DNA from: Candidatus Bathyarchaeota archaeon | Lineage (GTDB): Archaea > Thermoproteota > Bathyarchaeia > Bathyarchaeales > Bathycorpusculaceae | Reading direction: 5' to 3' | Assembly (NCBI GenBank): GCA_963717465.1 | Contig: OY970340.1 | Coordinates: 640,001 to 704,000 of the forward strand | Length of the DNA: 64,000 nucleotides | Shown: piece after piece, positions 38,541 through 49,809 of the stretch | Numbering within the stretch: position 1 is the first letter of the stretch | How the letters are laid out: each line of letters begins with the position of its first letter | Notes under the pieces: generated by a model | Databases searched by the model: none | The model's input: only the letters and a program-made list of their open reading frames with translations | What the model was told of the DNA's origin: nothing | Made by a program: the position numbers and the translations under genes

Positions 38541-39541
38541 ATGAAGAAATTCGATTTTGAAGAAGAAAGAATAAAAAGTGAAATTGCCAGTCTTGAAGCA
38601 AAACGTGTTCTGCTCCAGTTGCCTGAGGGATTAAACCTGAAGGCCCCCGTTTGGCAAAAATCGTTGAAAAATCAGGCGCTCTTCCAATAATTTCTGCTGA
38701 TCCGTGCTATGGCGCTTGTGATATAGGTTTCAACGAAGCGGAACGTTTAGGCGTAGATTTGATAGTGCATTTTGGGCATTCTAAACTCTTAAAGCATGAA
38801 CAAATTCCAACAGTTTATGTTGAAGCACGAGCAACAGTAACGGTTGATAAGGCTGTTGAAGAGGCAATTTCACTTCTTAGCAAGTATACAAAAATTGGTT
38901 TAGCAACTTCAGTGCAGCATTTACAAATGATTAATGAAACAAGGGAAATGCTTGTTAAAGCTGGAAAAATAGTCATCGTAGGCGATGCCGGGAAAATGAG
39001 TTATCCTGGACAAGTAATTGGATGTGATTACAGTAACGTTAAATCAATAGCTGATGAGGTTGAAGCATTCCTCTTTGTCGGCGGTGGAATGTTCCACGCG
39101 TTAGGCATTGCTTTAAGCACTTCTAAACCCACAGTCATTGCTGATCCATACGATAACAAGGCTTTCTCAATAGATAACGAAGCTAAAAAAATAATTAAGC
39201 AACGCTGGTCATGTATCGAGAAAAGCAAGCATGCAAAGACTTTCGGCGTACTAGTCGGATTAAAACCTGGCCAAAAGAAAATAGAAACAGCGCTAAAAGT
39301 TAAAGAGATAGCTGAGAAACAAGGCAAATCAGCTTACATATTGGCTGCAACGGAAATCACTCCTGAAGTGCTCTTAGAATTCCCATCAATTGATTCCTTC
39401 GTAAACACTGCTTGCCCAAGGATTTCTCTGGATGCTTCCTCGAAATTCTTAAAGCCAGTGCTTACAGTTAATGAGTTCATGGTTGTCTCTGGCGAATCAA
39501 CATGGGAGAATTTGCTCAAAGAAGGATTATTCGAAAATTAG
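38541..39541 (+). CDS. dph2: Diphthamide biosynthesis protein Dph2; frameshift near 38630
   Basis: QLPEGL, CYGACD, HFGH, GQVIGC, TACPRI. Confidence 0.93.
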
Positions 39542-40208
39542 ACCTGGAATTATTTCTTTCCAAAATAAAACCGCAACCCACTCCTAAAGTAAGTCTTGAG
39601 CAATATACAATTTCAGAATCAATTGCAGCAACCTTACTCCACATTGCCACCTACACTAACAATGACATTGTTGGAAAGAATATCATAGATTTAGGCTGTG
39701 GCACTGGCAGATTAGCTTTAGGTGCAGCGTACATGGGCGCAAAATCAGTTATCAGGAATTGATATCGACAAAAATACCCTGAGAATAGCCGCTGAAAACG
39801 CACGAGAACTGAGAGTATTTGCCAACACTCAATTTGTTGTCGGCGACATTTCCACAGTTAAGGGCGAGCTTCGATACGGCTCTGCAGAATCCACCGTTCG
39901 GAGTGCAAACCCGCGGTGCTGATCGGGCGTTCTTGGTGAAAGCCTTAGAGATTGGCAAATCAATCTATTCTCTGCATAATCATCCGCAGGTAGATGAACA
40001 ATTAATTAAGCGATTAAAATCTTCAAAGGGATTGCTAGAGGTTCCTCCTTCTGCTTTTTTAAAAAACTTGATTGAGAAACATAACGGTATTGTTAATGTG
40101 GTTTACGCCTTGCTTATGACTATTCCACGCATGTTCGATTTTCACACTAAGGCAAAGCATGATTTTGTTGTTGATTTATACATTATAACCCGAAAAGACA
40201 ATCGATGA
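39502..40208 (+). CDS. METTL5-like N6-adenine methyltransferase; frameshifts
   Basis: LEQY, DLGCGTG, NPPFG, YSLH. Confidence 0.88.
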
Positions 40209-42447: not shown

Positions 42448-43420
42448 TTAAAAAACAAGGTCCGCCATGTCCACACTGTTTTCGTAAATCTGCTTTAAGA
42501 AAGACAGAGCTGCTAGGATTTGCGGCATTATTTCGACAGGATTAGCCTTTGCAATCTTTTCAGTGTTCGTGTATAAGGCTTCAATTTTTCCCCTCATTGA
42601 ACGCACGTTTTCAGCTAAAGCAATATCCTTATTCACGAATGATTTCAATGCCTGTTCATGCGCATCGCTGCAAACTGCCTGAAAATCAAACAGCAACTTT
42701 TGCAACTCAACTGAAGGCTTAACACCGTTAAGGGATAAAGTTTTGGCTGCAACTTGAACACAGGCATCCCCTATGGCTTCAATTATGCTTGCAGCTAAAC
42801 GATAATCTAAGCAGTCTATCGCACTAATTCCAAGTTTCTCGCCAAGCCGAGAATTTTGAATTACAGTTCGCAAAATTCTAACCAAGAGGAAATAGAGTCG
42901 GTTACTCTCATTGTCCCTAGCAATCACGCTTTTAGCCAGGTTCATGTCTGAATTGATGAAAGAAGAAGCTACGTCGCGAGCCATGCCGGCAACAATGGCA
43001 TAGTTTCTTCTTAGGATTTTTTCTGGTGCAAAACCCGAAGGTTCAAGGAGACACTGCAAAACAATTTGAGAATAGTTTTCTTCAACAATCTCTAAGACCA
43101 ATCAAAGAGCTAACAGTTTGTTTAACAAGGTCTCTAATGTCAAAATCTATGCGGTCTTTAGCTTCAATGCGAATGACGTCAAAACCAAGCAGATAACTCC
43201 CGATTACTTCACGACGCAGATAAGACCCAACATTCAAGGTAACTTCTTTTTGTTGTGGCTCCGCATTATATTTTGGGTCCACAATAAGTTTTCCGTCTTC
43301 AGTTAAGTCCAAATTAACCAAAGTTCCCTTCTTAAGACCATTTTGTGTAGCCCAAGACCTTGGCACACAAACAAAAAAAGTACCAGTTGGAGTGCGTTGA
43401 ACTTTGCGTAAATCACCCAA
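42448..43420 (-). CDS. phoU: AbrB-PhoU phosphate uptake regulator; frameshift near 43090
   Basis: RKVQ...GTF.V..P..W N-domain, YLLGFD, GLEIVEE, PhoU repeats. Confidence 0.87.
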
Positions 43421-43695
43421 TCATATACACGCTCAGATATTCGAATCGAATTAAATTGAAAAATAAAAGGCTTATTTAAACCTGAATCCAAATTCTAGAG
43501 TTAAACAGCAATTATACAATTAGAGTATATTTTTGAAGCTCTGAATAAACGAATTTGCAGAATGCCAATATTGCTAATCTCCATTAAATTTTCAATTTCC
43601 AGTTGACAATGGTAAGAGTAAAATAAGCTAACAAAGCAAGAGCATATACGAAGGCTTGACATAAACAACCAGCCATCGCTAGGATAAAATATGCT

Positions 43696-45266
43696 ATGAT
43701 GGAAGCAAGAAAAACTTAAAAAGGCAATCGAAGCAACCATTGCAGCAGGTTACCAATTAAACAGCGAAGCTTTTGAGTTTTTAAAAACAAACCCTGCAGC
43801 TGAAGATCCTGTTGAAGTAATGAATTTAGCGATTCAAAGAATGGAACAATTGGAGAATAAGCCTTTATTCATAGGCAAGGAACTTATCTAGAAACAATTT
43901 TACAACCATCAAGCTCCAGAGAAGAAACAATCTCTTAAAGTCAAACTCAACCAAGCCCAAGCATGGAACCTCAAAATCAGACTCACTGTAGAAAAGGAAG
44001 ACTTTTTTTACCCTTATGCTAAGTACATCCCAGCTCAAATTAACATTATTAGATGATTCAACAGGGAAGCTGAGTTCTAATGGAACGCTAGAGGAGTACC
44101 TTCGATACTTTCAAGATAGGTTTAAACGGATTGAACGTCTGCTGAGGCAAAGAATGGATGTTAAAGCTGCAACATCAATATTGGAAGCATTGAAATCTCA
44201 GCCTAAAACAAAGCTAAAAATTATTTGCATGCTAACTGAGAAACGCGAATCAAAAAATCAAATATTCTTATCAGTTGAAGATTTACATGGAAGCACCACT
44301 GTTCTAATCCCGCAAAAAGCGCCTGAAGAAGTGCATAAAAAGGCGGCTCAACTTACTGCCTGACCAGATAGTTTGCTTAGCCGTGATAAAAACAAGAACC
44401 AATCTCTTTCTAGCTGAAGACATAATTTTTCCAGAAGTAGGCAAGAAACCTCAACAGAGAGCTGATGAACCTGTTTATGCAGTATTAACTTCAGATATTC
44501 ATATTGGAAGCAACAAATTCCAAAGAGAAGCATTCAACCGCTTTATTCAATGGCTTAACGGCAAATACGGAAACCAAGAAATGAAAGAAATCGCTGGCCG
44601 CGTAAAATACCTTCTCATCGCAGGCGACATTGTTGATGGCATCGGAGTTTACCCAAACCAAGTAAAAGAACTTTTGATAAGAGATGTTCATAAGCAATAC
44701 AGGTTCGCAGCAAAACTTATGCAGCAAATTCCAGATTACATTCAAATCATAGTTTCACCGGGTAACCATGATGCATCAAGAAAATCCCTTCCGCAACCAG
44801 CTATACCACAAGAATACCTAAAAACGATAAATGAAAAAGGCAACATTTACTCCGTCGGTAGCCCCTGTGTGCTCACTATACATGGTGTTGAAGTCTTAAT
44901 GTATCATGGCCGCAGTTTAGATGACCTAATCGGCACAGTTCCAGGGATAGATCATGATCACCCTGAAAAAGCAATGAAACTGCTTCTTGCAAGCACGTCA
45001 TTTAGCACCAGTGTACGGTGGCAAAACAATGTTGTCGCCAGAAAACCGAGATTACTTAGTAATTGATAGAGTACCTGATATTTTCCATGCTGGCCACATT
45101 CACGTCTTAGGGCTACTGCAATTACCGAGGAGTTTTAGTCATAAATTCTGGCGGTTGGCAAGAGCAAACTGACTATATGCAGAAGTTAGGTTTGGTTCCA
45201 ACGCCTGGGAAAGTGCCAGTAGTTAACTTGCAAACATTAGAAACATCAGTATTATCATTTAATTAG
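43696..45266 (+). CDS. polB: DNA polymerase D small subunit DP1; multiple frameshifts
   Basis: YFQDRF, OB fold, SDIHIGS, AGDIVDG, PGNHD, YHGRS, RHLAP.YG, HAGHIH. Confidence 0.93.
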
Positions 45267-45305: not shown

Positions 45306-46538
45306 TTAAGTGTTCTTGGAATTAACAGTAGTTGGAGTATATTCTAGCAAATGGCTAAACCTGCTGTCACTTCCAAATACGTCTTTGATCAGAGAACGCG
45401 ATATTTCCAGCCTTATTTTTTTAGTTCGTCCATAGCGACCCATGCTCACTACTTTTGCATTCAAAAGACCCATCGAATCAAGTTCATTAATCAAAGTGCC
45501 TAATCGGCGTTGAGTTAAAAGCCCCGCGCCTTGTTCTCCGCAGAGTTCATTGTAAATATCGTATATTTCGCCAGTATTAGCGCTTGATTTGTTCAGATGA
45601 TAAACGCTTAAAAGCACCAATTTTGAGTGTAAAGTTAAGTTTTTGAGCGCTTCGACAACACGGTTATGTTCTATATGTCTTTCAGCTTGCCTTACATGTT
45701 CATCTGTAATAATTTTGTCTTTTTGTCGTTCTGCAACTTCGCCAGCCACACGCAGCAGATCCAGGGCGCGGCGTGCATCACCATGTTCAGCAGCGGCTAA
45801 AGCTGAACAGATACTTAATGCAGCTTCAGATAAAACGCCTTCTTGAAACGAAAGCTTTGATCTTTCCAAGAATATATTGCGAAGTTCACTTGCATCATAG
45901 GGTCTGAAGACCAGTTCTTCCTCGCTAAGAGAACTGAAAACTCGTGGGTCAAGAAATTCTTTCAACCGTAAATCGTTGGATATTCCAATTATAGATACCT
46001 TACTCTTGCTAAGCGTTTCGTTTATTCTTGTTAATTCATACATGAAGCCGTCTCCATGCTCTTTAATCAAAGCGTCAACTTCGTCCAAGACTATTATGAA
46101 AATTATTCTTGAAGCGTCTAATCCTGATCGGAACCTATCGAAGACTTCGCCGACAGATAATCCAGTAAAAGGAATAGTTAAGCCAACGCTTTGACTTAGG
46201 CTTGCAAAAACTCGATATTCTGAGCCTACCATCCTGCAATTAATATAGCAAAACTTTACAAAAGATCCATACTCTTTAGATTTAGATTCTAAATGACTTA
46301 AGACATACTTGGTAACTGCAGTCTTTCCAGTTCCAGTTTTCCCATAAATAAAGATGTTTGAGCAACGTGCATTTTTTAGAACAGGAGCAACAGTTTGACC
46401 TAAAAGACGGATTTGTTCTTCTCTATGAGGCAATTTTTCAGGTAGGTAATCATGCCTTAGAACTTCGCGGTCCTTAAAGAGACAAACGCCATTTACAAAG
46501 TTGTCGAATACATCATTTAAGATACTTTGATTACCCAT
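45306..46538 (-). CDS. cdc6: Orc1/Cdc6 replication initiator
   Basis: LPHRE, GKTGTGKT, LDEVD, GDARRALDLLR, wHTH GRYGRT. Confidence 0.97.
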   Translation of the reverse strand: MGNQSILNDVFDNFVNGVCLFKDREVLRHDYLPEKLPHREEQIRLLGQTVAPVLKNARCSNIFIYGKTGTGKTAVTKYVLSHLESKSKEYGSFVKFCYINCRMVGSEYRVFASLSQSVGLTIPFTGLSVGEVFDRFRSGLDASRIIFIIVLDEVDALIKEHGDGFMYELTRINETLSKSKVSIIGISNDLRLKEFLDPRVFSSLSEEELVFRPYDASELRNIFLERSKLSFQEGVLSEAALSICSALAAAEHGDARRALDLLRVAGEVAERQKDKIITDEHVRQAERHIEHNRVVEALKNLTLHSKLVLLSVYHLNKSSANTGEIYDIYNELCGEQGAGLLTQRRLGTLINELDSMGLLNAKVVSMGRYGRTKKIRLEISRSLIKDVFGSDSRFSHLLEYTPTTVNSKNT

Positions 46539-46685
46539 TAGCCAGTCCCTTCCACTTTAGAGGGAACATCGTTATTCAAAATGGAACAGATAAAGCCTAT
46601 AGTACAAAAAACTGGTTTGAAGCACAATAATCCTAAAAATTAATGCAAGCAAGGGATGATAAGCAGGCAAACAGAGACTTACACG

Positions 46686-47170
46686 CACCCCAAGGTTTCT
46701 ACTGGAAAAATTTGTTAAAAAAAATTTAATTAAGAAAAACTTAGATATAATATATATAAATAATAATATACTCTAATAGTTAAAGAGAATATTTGTTTAT
46801 TAATTATTATTGTCAAGTATTTTAGACAAGTAGTCTGCAATTCTTTTTTCGAGAGTTTTTTAGCCGTTTTCATTGAAAAATATTTCGAGAGGAAATGTAG
46901 GGGTGTCGGCAAGTCCATGTGGTTGTCCATATAATTCCTCTTTTCCCTTTTTAAAAAAGATTTTAAACTTCAATTTTCTTGCCATGACTCTATATTGTAA
47001 AAAATATTATTCATTGTTAAATCTTAAGTCTCTTCTTTTTCCTTCACAGACTTGTGAACCAGTTGTGAAATTGATCATAAAATATCTCTTATTCAGCCTT
47101 TATTTTGTCATTGTATTCTATTTATGTCCTTTTTACTGTGAAGATGCCACCCCTGCATTTCTACTGGAGA
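46686..47170. other. Replication origin (oriC) with three ORB elements and AT-rich tracts
   Basis: TTTCCAGTAGAAACCTTGGGGTG (-, 46686-46708), TTTCGAGAGGAAATGTAGGGGTG (+, 46883-46905), TCTCCAGTAGAAATGCAGGGGTG (-, 47148-47170); upstream of cdc6. Confidence 0.9.
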
Positions 47171-47345
47171 AACAAGATCAGAATGAAGAAAAGAATTTTA
47201 AATCAATCAGAGATTGTGTGACCCTTGTAATTCTTAAAAAAATGAATTTTAAGCCTATTTTTAAAATTTAGTCATTATATCAGTCGTTTCACAAACTCCG
47301 ATTTCACCATAACAATTATAAGGTGTAAAGCTGTAAAGTTGTGAA
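47043..47345. repeat. Cluster A of TGTGA(A)/TTCAC(A) motifs
   Basis: Sites at 47043, 47053, 47064, 47137, 47217, 47288, 47303, 47340; includes TTCACA-GACT-TGTGAA. Confidence 0.65.
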
Positions 47346-47367
47346 CGTCTCAAGGTGCACCGCAAGC

Positions 47368-47796
47368 ATGCCCGCTAGAAAAATGCGTGTGGAGTTATTC
47401 GATAACGAGGGAAATCGATACACTATAGCCTTTGAGGGACAAATCACTCGAGATAAAGCTTTGCGGCTCCTTGATCTTGTTGAATTGCTTGGTGGAGTGC
47501 CTGAGGGTCAACAGCCTTCTGGATTAGGAAATCTTCCAGGTGAGGCTTCTTCAAGATTTGAAAAAATGCGCTCAGTGATTCAGAAGAATTTTCCTCTTGT
47601 CTGGTTTTCATCCAAGGAAATTCAGTCGGTCTATGAGCAGGAACTTAAAGAACCCATAAGTTTGAGCACCGTTTCAACTTATTTAGCTAGAATGGCAGGC
47701 AAGGGCTACCTCCTTAGAACTGGCGGTGCCAACAATTTGAAGTACAAGATTTCGTCAGTGACTCCGCAAGCAGTTGTAAAACAAACAATGAAATGA
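47368..47796 (+). CDS. Winged-helix DNA-binding protein with small N-terminal alpha/beta domain
   Basis: FSSKEIQSVYEQ...ISLSTVSTYLARM..KGYL.R.G wHTH. Confidence 0.8.
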   Translation: MPARKMRVELFDNEGNRYTIAFEGQITRDKALRLLDLVELLGGVPEGQQPSGLGNLPGEASSRFEKMRSVIQKNFPLVWFSSKEIQSVYEQELKEPISLSTVSTYLARMAGKGYLLRTGGANNLKYKISSVTPQAVVKQTMK

Positions 47797-47843
47797 TAAC
47801 TATTTTCCAAGTTGATTAATCTTTAGAAGATTATGAACTTCTG

Positions 47844-48558
47844 TTAAGCTGGTGGGTTCTCTGTTTTGTTTAAGAATTTTTCCATTTCTTTTTTAACGCT
47901 GTATCGGAATGGGATTTTGCCGGTTTCTCTTTCGAGGTATCCTCCTTCATACAGCTTCTTCATTAGTCTGGCTGTGTGCTCTCTGCTGAGTTTAACTCTG
48001 TCTTTAATTTCAGGCGCTGTTTTTGGCCCTTCAGAAGATAGCATTTCCAAGCACTGAAATTTCTGTATCAGTCAACGCAGCCATTGCTTTATCACGCCTA
48101 ATTGGTATAACTGGTTCGGGCTTGTTTTCAGTTGGGGATGCAAACTTTTGAATCTGTTCTTCGAAACCCGAAATTCTTGTCTTAAAACTTTCCTGAGAGT
48201 TTTCAATATCCTTAATTTTCAGTTCAAAACCATTTAGACTTGCCAAAACTTTTTCATTGTCCTCTATTGCCTTGGCGAATTGGTTTTCTATCGGGTTTAG
48301 CTTCTTTTCTAAAGCTTCTGCTTTTTTGAATCCTGCGTCAGCTTTGGCTGAATTTCCTTCAACTTTGTAAGCAATCAATTCTAATCTGCTTGCTTCGCGC
48401 TTGAGTTCTCTGTTAAAGCTAAGAACAATGTCCTGAACCGAGTTCTTTGCCTTCTCGTACTCTTTTTGTGCATTCTTAATTTGCCTAAGAAAGATAATAC
48501 ACGAGATAACTATGGCTGCAAGCAGTACAGTTAATAAAACTAAACTTACGTCAGTCAT
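47844..48558 (-). CDS. Membrane-anchored coiled-coil protein with C-terminal wHTH; 1-nt frameshift near 48045
   Basis: N-terminal TM helix, heptad-rich middle; LTDTEISVL joins EMLSSEGPKTAPEIKDRVKLSREHTARLMKKLYEGGYLER if one G is removed. Confidence 0.8.
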
Positions 48559-48572
48559 GTTTGTTCATACTC

Positions 48573-48857
48573 CGTGATTCGTGCGTGATTCAAACAGTGT
48601 TGCATCACAAATCACAGTTACCATGAAACTTTTAAGTTTTATGGTGATATCTCGCTTTATCTGTCCTCCACATCACAGGTCACAAAATAAATCACAGCTT
48701 CTATCTTTACATCTGTGATCAGTGTTAACGTTTTATATCTTAAATTTTAGCTTATTTTCAGCAATAAAGCTCTATTTGAGCTTTTAACTATGAACCTTAA
48801 ATTCATATGTGTAAAGTTTTCAAAACATAGCATCCTTATGTGATTTGTGACATCACA
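48573..48857. repeat. Cluster B of GTGAY/RTCAC motifs
   Basis: Twelve half-sites (48574, 48585, 48604, 48611, 48644, 48672, 48679, 48691, 48715, 48840, 48847, 48852); includes TTGTGA-CA-TCACAA. Confidence 0.8.
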
Positions 48858-49332
48858 AAGGCTCTCCTGATGGACTAGAAAGCCGTTTTAAGCTCGTTTC
48901 AAGCTCTTCCCGGATGATTTCGACCAGTTTTAAGCGTTCTTTTAGCTCATCTTCCTTGTCTGGCACTTCCTGGTGTGCCTCCACATATTCCTTCAATTTA
49001 TTGCTTATTTCGAGATACGGGTCAAGAGTAGTCGTTTCAAACACTCCTAAGTAGCCTAAAAGCAGTACAGTGTATATGGATTTTATCACGTTTTCTTTAG
49101 ACTGTTTTAATGTCCTATTAAAGGAACCGCGACTTATTTTAGCCTTAGTTAGCCTTAAACAGGCTTTTTCATCGTACTTTAGCTGTTTGCCTGAAATATT
49201 CTCGGCTAAAATGTCTATTAACAGTGTTTCTAGCTGGATTTTTGTTAATTGGCTATTTTTAGCCAGTATTTTTACAATAGGGTCGTTTAATGCCCCGTTT
49301 AACCATGCTTGAACGCCTTCTTTTAGCTTCAA
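48853..49332 (-). CDS. Hypothetical protein with HTH-like segment
   Basis: LTKIQLETL...ISRGSFNRTLKQSKENV resembles a sigma-region-4/Tfx-like HTH. Confidence 0.72.
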   Translation of the reverse strand: MKLKEGVQAWLNGALNDPIVKILAKNSQLTKIQLETLLIDILAENISGKQLKYDEKACLRLTKAKISRGSFNRTLKQSKENVIKSIYTVLLLGYLGVFETTTLDPYLEISNKLKEYVEAHQEVPDKEDELKERLKLVEIIREELETSLKRLSSPSGEPL

Positions 49333-49702
49333 ACTGCTCTACTTCTCCGTATATTGAAATGGATACGCTTTTGTATACTATGCCTGCTTTTTAAAATTTT
49401 CCTAACAGAAAGCTAACCCTGTTTTAGTTCTAAAATGGCATTAATTGAGGCTTAAAATAAAAATTAACTACTTTTTGAGGCATTATTAGAGTTATACAGT
49501 CAATATGTTTGTGTTTGGCTTAAATATGCTTGTACTGCCCTTCTCTGACCCAATAAAATGGTTGAGATTAACTAGATGTTGGCTGAGTGTTTGCCTGAAT
49601 TATAGGTTCATTTTATCGATTGCATGTTAAGTTAATATAATTCACACAATTTACCTCTAAATTAAAAAGACTTTTCTGACGCTCCATTCTTTTTCTATGC
49701 GA

Positions 49703-49809
49703 GTGATATCATCATGAATTGTCTTCGTGATATCACCTTGTCACAAATAGTCACGTTGGATGCTCCATGGAATCTTTGATATCACAGCGTGATGTGACGC
49801 GTCTGTGAT
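49703..49809. repeat. Cluster C of GTGAY/RTCAC motifs
   Basis: Nine half-sites in 107 bp, with GTGATATCAT (49703), perfect GTGATATCAC (49727) and TTGATATCACA (49776). Confidence 0.82.

Follow-up and report, generated by a model that had tools for sequence, protein, structure and literature searches.

As described in the cited reports, RocS of Streptococcus pneumoniae, RicO of Staphylococcus aureus (with its ricS sites), RacA of Bacillus subtilis (with its ram sites; PMC4914108), and pSK1 Par each combine a winged helix-turn-helix (wHTH), a coiled coil, and membrane attachment, with no dedicated ParA. RicO recognizes motifs near the origin and anchors origins; its nine ricS sites, with an 18-bp motif, span ~700 kb (bioRxiv 10.64898/2026.03.06.710092). 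RocS functions when an unrelated transmembrane (TM) helix replaces its amphipathic helix, and the same report calls pSK1 Par a partition system made of a single protein (PMC11500499). Here, we describe a locus beside the replication origin (oriC) of a Candidatus Bathyarchaeota archaeon, with genes for three putative DNA-binding proteins, which we will call P1, P2, and P3, and with arrays of the half-site GTGAY (RTCAC on the other strand). P2 is predicted to have all three parts (wHTH, coiled coil, and membrane anchor) within a single polypeptide. The window that we analyzed is a stretch of 64,000 nucleotides, positions 640,001–704,000 of a 3.05-Mb single-contig genome. (Coordinates are positions within the window unless stated otherwise; labels beginning with G, L, or f are sampled genomes, loci, or families, and f19 is the family that bears amoA.)

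P1, P2, and P3 have been lost or relocated independently, each with its own motif. The best explanation is that the locus holds three separable protein-motif pairs, and not one system with one box, which is what a first-pass annotation of this DNA had proposed.

As to function, our best reading is that P2 probably resembles RocS, RicO, RacA, and pSK1 Par without being homologous to them. We found no sequence homology between P2 and these proteins beyond a weak match of its coiled coil to the RacA model (E = 0.042, and 13.9 bits versus a cut-off of 165). The domains of P2 are in the reverse order, with the wHTH at the C terminus, and the wHTH is MarR/TrmB-like, not MerR-type. Unlike the four bacterial proteins, P2 has a true N-terminal TM helix, by prediction. 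And its putative sites are arrays of 5-bp half-sites within a few kb of its own gene, instead of the much longer and widely dispersed motif reported for RicO. Judged by its reversed domains, its class of wHTH, and its local arrays, P2 would not be a member of their group.

Among archaeal systems, Sulfolobus SegAB and AspA-ParB-ParA from pNOB8 are comparable to our trio: their binders are described as recognizing specific sites that lie upstream of the genes for the binders themselves (AspA is a spreading wHTH; PMC5120986). But these systems need a ParA-type ATPase in the cassette, unlike the locus in the window, and P1, P2, and P3 had no match to SegB or AspA in PDB sequence searches. Of the features of ParABS, SegAB, and type Ib systems, the locus has the clustered cis sites near the origin or the binder's own promoter. 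Its putative binders are of other kinds than ParB-HTH or ribbon-helix-helix proteins (P1 and P2 are wHTH, P3 is sigma-4-like, and we found no match to ParB or to ribbon-helix-helix families), and a linked ParA is found only in family f41, which lacks P2.

The omega protein (ParB) of pSM19035, a type Ib partition system, has parS sites that overlap promoters and are built from the heptad WATCACW (PMC9499535). As far as that account goes, its core is near-identical to the RTCAC of the P2 arrays, both have direct and inverted repeats (with a 7-bp peak), and in both the sites overlap the promoter of the binder (for the arrays, the putative binder P2). However, omega is a ribbon-helix-helix protein with a ParA, while P2 is a putative membrane-anchored wHTH with no linked ParA, and the P2 arrays do not have 7–10 contiguous heptads. 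Since the parS sites of omega lie over promoters too, a role as a centromere is compatible with autoregulation.

Arrays of GTGAY half-sites around P2

Three gaps near P1–P3 are rich in GTGA-type half-sites (clusters A, B, and C in the table below). Clusters B and C hold the two densest 300-bp windows for GTGAY in the genome (12 and 10 sites; the next has 7), and they rank first and second among 1,580 intergenic regions of at least 100 bp (Poisson P = 7e-11 and 1e-6). These P values are post hoc, as we picked the motif by looking at this locus, and it is conservation that supports the arrays independently. Across 22 relatives, the fraction of identical bases in gap B is 0.80 within boxes versus 0.43 for other bases.

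We defined an array as at least 5 half-sites in 300 bp, within 600 bp of P2 or P2–P3. By this definition, 76 of 85 P2 loci have an array (52 of 61 if the genus is left out), as against 0 of 12 loci in genomes without a match to P2. (The tally includes five of the six genomes in which P1 is far from oriC, and second loci where available: L187, L189, L192, L194, L234, and L071.) On a Cdc6 tree with 28 rows (9 of 37 rows were dropped as near-duplicates), the P2-less state is seen in 8 rows and takes 5 changes, at least 4 of them forced by well-supported branches. Arrays are kept without P1 at L087, L088, and L105. In G211 (L091 and L196), 7 kb separate P2 from P3, with GTGAY clusters repeated along that stretch.

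The spacing of the half-sites is also regular: across 49 loci, there are peaks at 7 and 10–11 bp for direct pairs, along with the fused palindrome GTGAY-RTCAC. The CRP/FNR box is TGTGA-N6-TCACA. This 6-bp-spacer type of palindrome is not seen, with 0 convergent pairs at offset 9 in the 49 loci and peaks at 5 and 12.

Boxes are also maintained within coding sequences. The coding sequence of P2 has more boxes than expected from codon-usage simulations at 8 of 31 loci (p ≤ 0.012), and in f19, all 4 loci tested are in excess (8–9 observed versus 1.3–3.2 expected); box counts in neighboring control genes match the synonymous-codon expectation. Eight relatives have an aminotransferase gene between P3 and the nitrilase gene, and all eight have a cluster of boxes in the middle of this gene, in excess of within-gene synonymous permutations (p = 0.001–0.02). 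As these loci are homologous, they count as a single event. This in-gene array can be aligned with the left half of cluster C, yet the window lacks the aminotransferase gene, so the array outlived or predated the gene (the polarity is not rooted). Further GTGAY clusters lie between convergent stop codons at L060, L062, L063, and L104. These observations support the view that the GTGAY arrays behave as a selected cis-element, and not only as a promoter operator. We found no second GTGAY array or regulon in the window's genome; the four next-densest windows that we inspected are all inside open reading frames (ORFs).

From this pattern, we infer that the winged helices of P2 bind the GTGAY arrays. 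The predicted recognition helix is REHTARLMKKL, and R-E-H-x-x-R-L-x-K is near-invariant across homologs; at L074 and L075, where this helix is changed, the arrays are missing. Lysine and arginine are enriched just after the membrane helix in all 39 homologs with a detected helix (of 65 examined), which implies a cytoplasmic body (a predicted topology). P2 has no close solved relative among PDB sequences, and its match in the ESM Atlas is a generic MarR/TrmB protein.

The first-pass annotation had described P2 as a TM–coiled-coil–wHTH gene. We agree with the architecture, but the frame is not intact: in the window's assembly, P2 is split by one extra base near 48050, while it is a single ORF in relatives. 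We judge that the frameshift is an assembly error, given the intact relatives and the other broken genes in the window.

We also noticed variation at the beginning of P2. At L074, L075, L083, and L085, P2 has no membrane helix and starts with a short and possibly amphipathic stretch (by eye). And in 17 of 23 loci from relatives in the genus (L031–L050 and L064–L066), the 5' end has ACG where one relative has ATG; the window itself has ATG. In 14 of these 17 loci, the ACG lies within an RTCAC box.

P1 beside the origin, and a putative operator of P3

The first-pass annotation placed these genes beside an origin with origin recognition boxes (ORBs), and this origin is real: with a profile trained on relatives, we detected a single cluster of ORBs (ORB1–ORB3) in the whole genome. 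GC content at 46600–46799, which includes ORB1, is 26%; the AT-rich unwinding region lies to the right of ORB1. None of the GC, AT, purine, or keto skews indicated this origin.

Cluster A is on the right flank of oriC and is also upstream of P1. It is the genome's densest window for TGTGAA (6 boxes; the next has 4) and the top intergenic region for this word (Poisson P = 1e-5, post hoc like the values above, among the same 1,580 regions). The boxes had been described as a single class with about 29 half-sites, often palindromic. The count is right (8 + 12 + 9 for A, B, and C), and the three palindromes that were quoted are present (47043–47058, 48845–48858, and 49727–49736). The single class holds for B and C only: just 1 of 8 half-sites in cluster A is GTGAY, while 6 of 8 are TGTGAA/TTCACA, so its motif is different. 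In f19, the corresponding word is TGTTAA.

At 53 of 54 scored origins with an adjacent P1, there are at least two TGT(G/T)AA boxes to the right of ORB2 (mean 6.5, versus 1.1 expected), and ORB3 is present at 50 of the 54. (Three f19 regions were unscored because ORB2 was below the threshold.) In all six genomes with P1 19–580 kb away, the origin has kept ORB3 and at least two boxes, and the relocated P1 genes have only 0–2 boxes upstream. Since ORB3 and the boxes stay when P1 moves, cluster A is an element of the origin and not the operator of P1. At origins without P1, ORB3 is found in 0 of 4 regions (from three genomes), with at most one box each; the origin of a fourth P1-less genome (L088) was unscored and has no TGTGAA. 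The co-loss suggests that P1 binds the boxes of cluster A.

We propose P1 as a candidate accessory origin-binding protein. In Sulfolobales, UBP is described as a second sequence-specific origin binder, besides Orc1, with the site ucm; its fold is a beta-hairpin saddle, its sites are one between the ORBs and >300 other loci, and the authors ask whether other lineages have analogues (PMC12141716). We considered whether P1 might be UBP, but rejected this because the fold is different. The AlphaFold2 model of P1 (pLDDT 70.7) has an N-terminal beta-hairpin and helix, a linker, and a C-terminal winged helix, and the best-matching folds are Fur-, BlaI-, and Zalpha-like wHTH domains (Z = 8.3–11.4). 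In PDB sequence searches, P1 has no match to UBP and no close solved relative. Also, unlike the UBP sites as reported, the putative P1 boxes are outside the ORB pair and are clustered nowhere else. P1 may instead be a functional analogue of UBP.

The heads of P2 and P1 share folds with winged-helix regulators (MarR/TrmB/Lrs14-like and BlaI/CopY/Fur-like). Unlike those regulators, P1 and P2 have no ligand domain, and we found no regulon for them. Beyond the head, P2 adds the TM helix and the coiled coil, and P1 adds its N-terminal hairpin-helix domain. In the window's genome, no operators for the P2 or P3 motifs were found at other promoters.

P3 has a third motif, which the first-pass annotation missed. 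By position, P3 has a putative auto-operator at its own promoter, as does P2. The palindrome TACA-N4-TGTA follows the TATA-like box of P3 at 63 of 75 loci (with a strict pattern), with or without P1 or P2, and family f41 has the variant GACA-N4-TGTC. This site is unique in the genome, at 25 bits versus 16 for the next site, which is inside an ORF. That its only site is its own promoter suggests that P3 is kept at set amounts for another job. P3 stays with P2 or, in the P2-less family f41, with a ParA cassette. Its AlphaFold2 model (pLDDT 80.7) has only weak matches (best folds at Z = 6–7.4, values in the range seen for common arrangements). P3 has no Pfam family, no Foldseek match at E = 0.001 or better, and no close solved relative among PDB sequences; its label in the ESM Atlas is "hypothetical."

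Distribution, ParA proteins, and genomic context

We searched for the three genes in a sample of 301 genomes drawn from the phylum; a gene that we did not find in a sampled genome is not necessarily absent. P1 was matched in 200 genomes, P2 in 169, and P3 in 142, almost always as a single copy. (The P3 count is from a single-sequence search, which is less sensitive than the searches for P1 and P2.) Every one of the 44 f19 genomes sampled has both P1 and P2, and the two f19 genomes tested for amoA carry it. The trio is syntenic with cdc6 and oriC across Bathyarchaeia and the amoA-bearing genomes, and the order DP1-cdc6-P1-P2-P3-GGGPS in f19 is the order in the window. We found none of the three genes in 69 genomes of seven families. 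These include the Sul7d-bearing family f33 (0 of 10 genomes) and the Cren7-bearing families f20 and f27. The best explanation is that the gene block is old and origin-side in Bathyarchaeia, in Nitrososphaeria-type genomes, and in several other lineages of Thermoproteota. From their spread over several classes, the modules look to be more than 1 billion years old. We found no description of these genes or boxes in the literature (open papers). We take the block to be real, ancient, and, as far as these papers go, undescribed.

The window encodes no ParA or SegA nearby, as had been reported: there is no ParA-type Walker ATPase among its ORFs at 38–58 kb. In the whole genome, the best full-length match to the ParA/MinD family is at genome position 2,207,950, which is 1.5 Mb from oriC. 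This MinD/ParA-family ATPase is preceded by a coiled-coil–wHTH gene (G000:C1:2207563-2208729). In f19, three of three genomes (G216, G210, and G105) have no full-length ParA, only short P-loop matches.

In the P2-less family f41, 8 of the 12 genomes sampled have a Soj-like ParA near P3: in seven it is immediately upstream of P3, and in one it is 1.4 kb upstream. Three of the others have no such ParA, and one is cut by the end of a contig. These proteins match Pfam AAA_31 (4.6e-50) and Soj in the PDB (7.8e-40). In all eight (L071:6600-7756, L081:6458-7695, L242–L244, and L247–L249), a conserved ORF of 103–112 amino acids precedes and overlaps parA. By eye only, with no match in Pfam or the PDB, the small ORF looks like a ribbon-helix-helix protein. 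Its promoter has a palindrome like CCCATGGGTGAC. Three GTGAY sites with a 9-bp period overlap the start of parA in most of these cassettes, outside our counting window for arrays. The small ORF and parA are a candidate for an undescribed archaeal chromosomal partition cassette. Since the cassette is one event and none was found in other P2-less families, its presence where P2 is absent is suggestive only.

The gene order in the window is DP1-cdc6-origin-P1-P2-P3-nitrilase-nadE-elf1-GGGPS-DP2. (We identified cdc6, DP1, and nitrilase by Pfam; the other neighbors were labeled by reading their translations.) A search of Rfam gave no significant match.

Table. Positions of the genes, origin recognition boxes, and motif clusters of the locus within the window
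Feature	Position	Strand	Comment
cdc6/orc1 initiator gene (context)	45306..46538	-	Pfam Cdc6_C 3.6e-24, Cdc6_lid 2.3e-23
ORB1	46686..46708	-	Left of the AT-rich unwinding region; ORB profile score 37
ORB2	46883..46905	+	Inverted partner of ORB1; ORB profile score 26
Cluster A	47043..47345	.	Six TGTGAA/TTCACA boxes (47043, 47053, 47064, 47137, 47288, 47340); putative P1 sites
ORB3	47148..47170	-	Inside cluster A; ORB profile score 36
P1	47368..47796	+	142 aa; candidate accessory origin-binding protein
P2	47844..48558	-	N-terminal membrane helix (predicted), coiled coil, MarR/TrmB-like wHTH (Pfam)
Cluster B	48573..48857	.	12 GTGAY/RTCAC half-sites around the P2 promoter and P3 stop; putative P2 sites
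P3	48853..49332	-	159 aa; sigma-4/LuxR-like HTH and helical hairpin
P3 palindrome TACA-N4-TGTA	49364..49375	-	Directly downstream of the P3 TATA-like box; putative auto-operator
Cluster C	49703..49809	.	Nine GTGAY/RTCAC half-sites; nitrilase 3' end

Several genes in the window are split by frameshifts (at 43082–45266, 39502–40208, and 48050), which points to assembly errors: DP1 (at least 3 ORFs), a methyltransferase-like gene, a PhoU-like gene, and P2.

A 23-nt element, TCACCATAA, is common to the promoters of P1 and P2 (47300–47322 and 48629–48651), upstream of the TATA-like box, and is also visible in relatives; it is possible that P1 and P2 are co-regulated.

In six genomes (G047, G055, G162, G300, G116, and G218; L222–L231, L198, and L201), cdc6 is 50–230 kb away and has no ORB, and ORB-like sites remain beside P1 (and P2). 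In G055, only one ORB-like site scored beside P1. Predicting the origin by its proximity to cdc6 would fail in these genomes.

Two other kinds of neighbors recur. In many relatives (L032, L051–L053, L055, L056, L059, L060, L099, L100, L103, and L104), P1 and P2 are separated by a divergent gene for a HerA-type ATPase (Pfam DUF87, 1.4e-7), together with that of a nuclease-like partner; both are absent from the window. The partner has no Pfam match and may be NurA-like. In distant lineages, a gene of ~190–210 amino acids with HTH_3 and CBS domains is a recurring neighbor of P1, P2, or P3 (L074–L077, L079, L083, L092, L196–L200, L222, L224, L232, and L233); it is absent from the window's locus.

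What the locus might do

We propose that P2 coats the arrays, holds origin-proximal DNA at the membrane, and represses its own gene; that P1 works together with Cdc6, or against it, at ORB3 on the flank of the origin; and that P3 regulates itself. We give this scheme an even chance of being correct. P2 would be anchored by its N-terminal membrane helix and would self-associate via its coiled coil. Its winged helices would bind arrays of (T/C)GTGA(T/C) half-sites, which are spaced by 7 or 10–11 bp or fused as GTGAY-RTCAC. Because the arrays adjoin oriC, this binding would hold the origin region at the membrane, and this would help sister origins to separate or take up their positions with no dedicated ATPase, as with RocS, RicO, and pSK1 Par. 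The same binding would repress the promoter of P2. P1 would bind the TGTGAA boxes around ORB3 and modulate the action of Cdc6 there, and P3 would repress itself from its single operator.

Several observations weigh against this proposal. Whole lineages that keep the arrays have a P2 without a membrane helix (L199–L204, L222–L228, L240, and L241). Nine of the 85 P2 loci are below our threshold for arrays: L074 and L075, where the P2 helix is altered; L196 (with L091); and six loci with 4 sites. The array is densest over P2's own promoter in every case, and the arrays travel with the P2 gene, not with oriC: they are 12–33 kb from cdc6 in G049, G064, and G057, and ~151 kb away in G149. Their span in the window is ~1.3 kb, too short to cover the origin region broadly in the way of ram or parS sites; the nine ricS sites are reported to span ~700 kb. 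Nor is there a wide spread of GTGAY: across 10-kb bins from 600 to 780 kb of the genome, only one bin is raised (23 versus a mean of 10). Also, the P2-less families f14, f17, f25, and f43, and three f41 genomes, have no Soj-like ParA, so nothing visible need replace P2 when it is lost.

The pairing of P1 with its boxes is weakened as well. There are few P1-less origins (three genomes scored and one unscored), and at L087 and L105, one deletion could have removed ORB3, the boxes, and P1 together. The switch between TGTGAA and TGTTAA does not cleanly follow the recognition helix of P1: L098 has the common helix yet has TGTTAA, while L099 has an altered helix yet has TGTGAA.

Some of these observations would fit with pure autoregulation. 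P1, P2, and P3 might be three unrelated, self-regulated transcription factors in a conserved neighborhood, with P2 as a membrane-bound one-component repressor whose auxiliary sites act by looping or as a roadblock, and with no positioning of the chromosome. This would explain why cluster B surrounds the P2 promoter, why a box often covers the start codon, why the arrays travel with the gene, why the head of P2 is MarR/TrmB-like, and why the P3 palindrome is at a textbook position for an operator. Cluster A is also upstream of P1. However, pure autoregulation seems inconsistent with arrays that lie within an unrelated gene and where genes converge at their 3' ends, with the lack of any target beyond the locus itself in the window's genome, and with cluster A remaining at oriC when P1 leaves. 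We take this explanation seriously but consider it unlikely.

We also considered that P2 and its arrays might form a membrane-held nucleoprotein block that acts on replication or architecture and not on segregation. Such a block might time or bias initiation, insulate the origin, or recruit an SMC-type complex. The arrays are beside a single origin, the phased spacing of 10–11 bp would suit a coated, one-faced complex, and the HerA-type ATPase and its partner lie between P1 and P2 in many relatives. But in genomes from f26 and f31, the arrays are 12–151 kb from the ORBs, which is too far for direct contact with Cdc6, and we think that this role is quite unlikely.

That P1, P2, and P3 form one machine on one class of TGTGA/TCACA box, as first suggested, is more doubtful still. 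In Bathyarchaeia and the amoA family, the three genes are neighbors, the motif of cluster A has TGTGA in common with that of B and C, and the 23-nt element is in the promoters of both P1 and P2, but each of the three motifs goes with a different gene, and these genes have been lost or moved independently of one another. Finally, chance clustering of a short, post hoc 5-mer in AT-rich spacers, with 7,016 GTGAY sites genome-wide, is refuted by conservation in place across classes, as well as by the top ranks among intergenic regions and the synonymous tests.

A membrane tether of this kind would matter because chromosome segregation in archaea is poorly explained. According to a 2024 review, how Sulfolobus segregates its chromosomes, and whether SegAB is essential, are not known (PMC7617429). 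Nitrosopumilus maritimus is reported to have one origin (PMC4010727) and to segregate right after replication (PMC5120986), yet three genomes from the amoA family have no full-length ParA. The locus offers a candidate protein, motif, and array for this gap. Similarly, P1 is a candidate answer to the question in the UBP report of whether there are origin co-factors elsewhere (PMC12141716). In the broadest form of our proposal, an ATPase-free tether of P2 and GTGAY arrays at the origin would segregate or position chromosomes in Bathyarchaeia, in ammonia-oxidizing archaea, and in related TACK lineages, and it would be replaceable by a ParA cassette at the same locus. P1 would be an ancient second origin binder that keeps its place at the ORB cluster even in genomes with a relocated cdc6, and it would fill the role that UBP has in Sulfolobales. 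We hold this broad form tentatively, and would sooner expect it to need revision than to stand as a whole; if it is correct, then these archaea may separate their origins with a membrane-anchored protein and its own local arrays.

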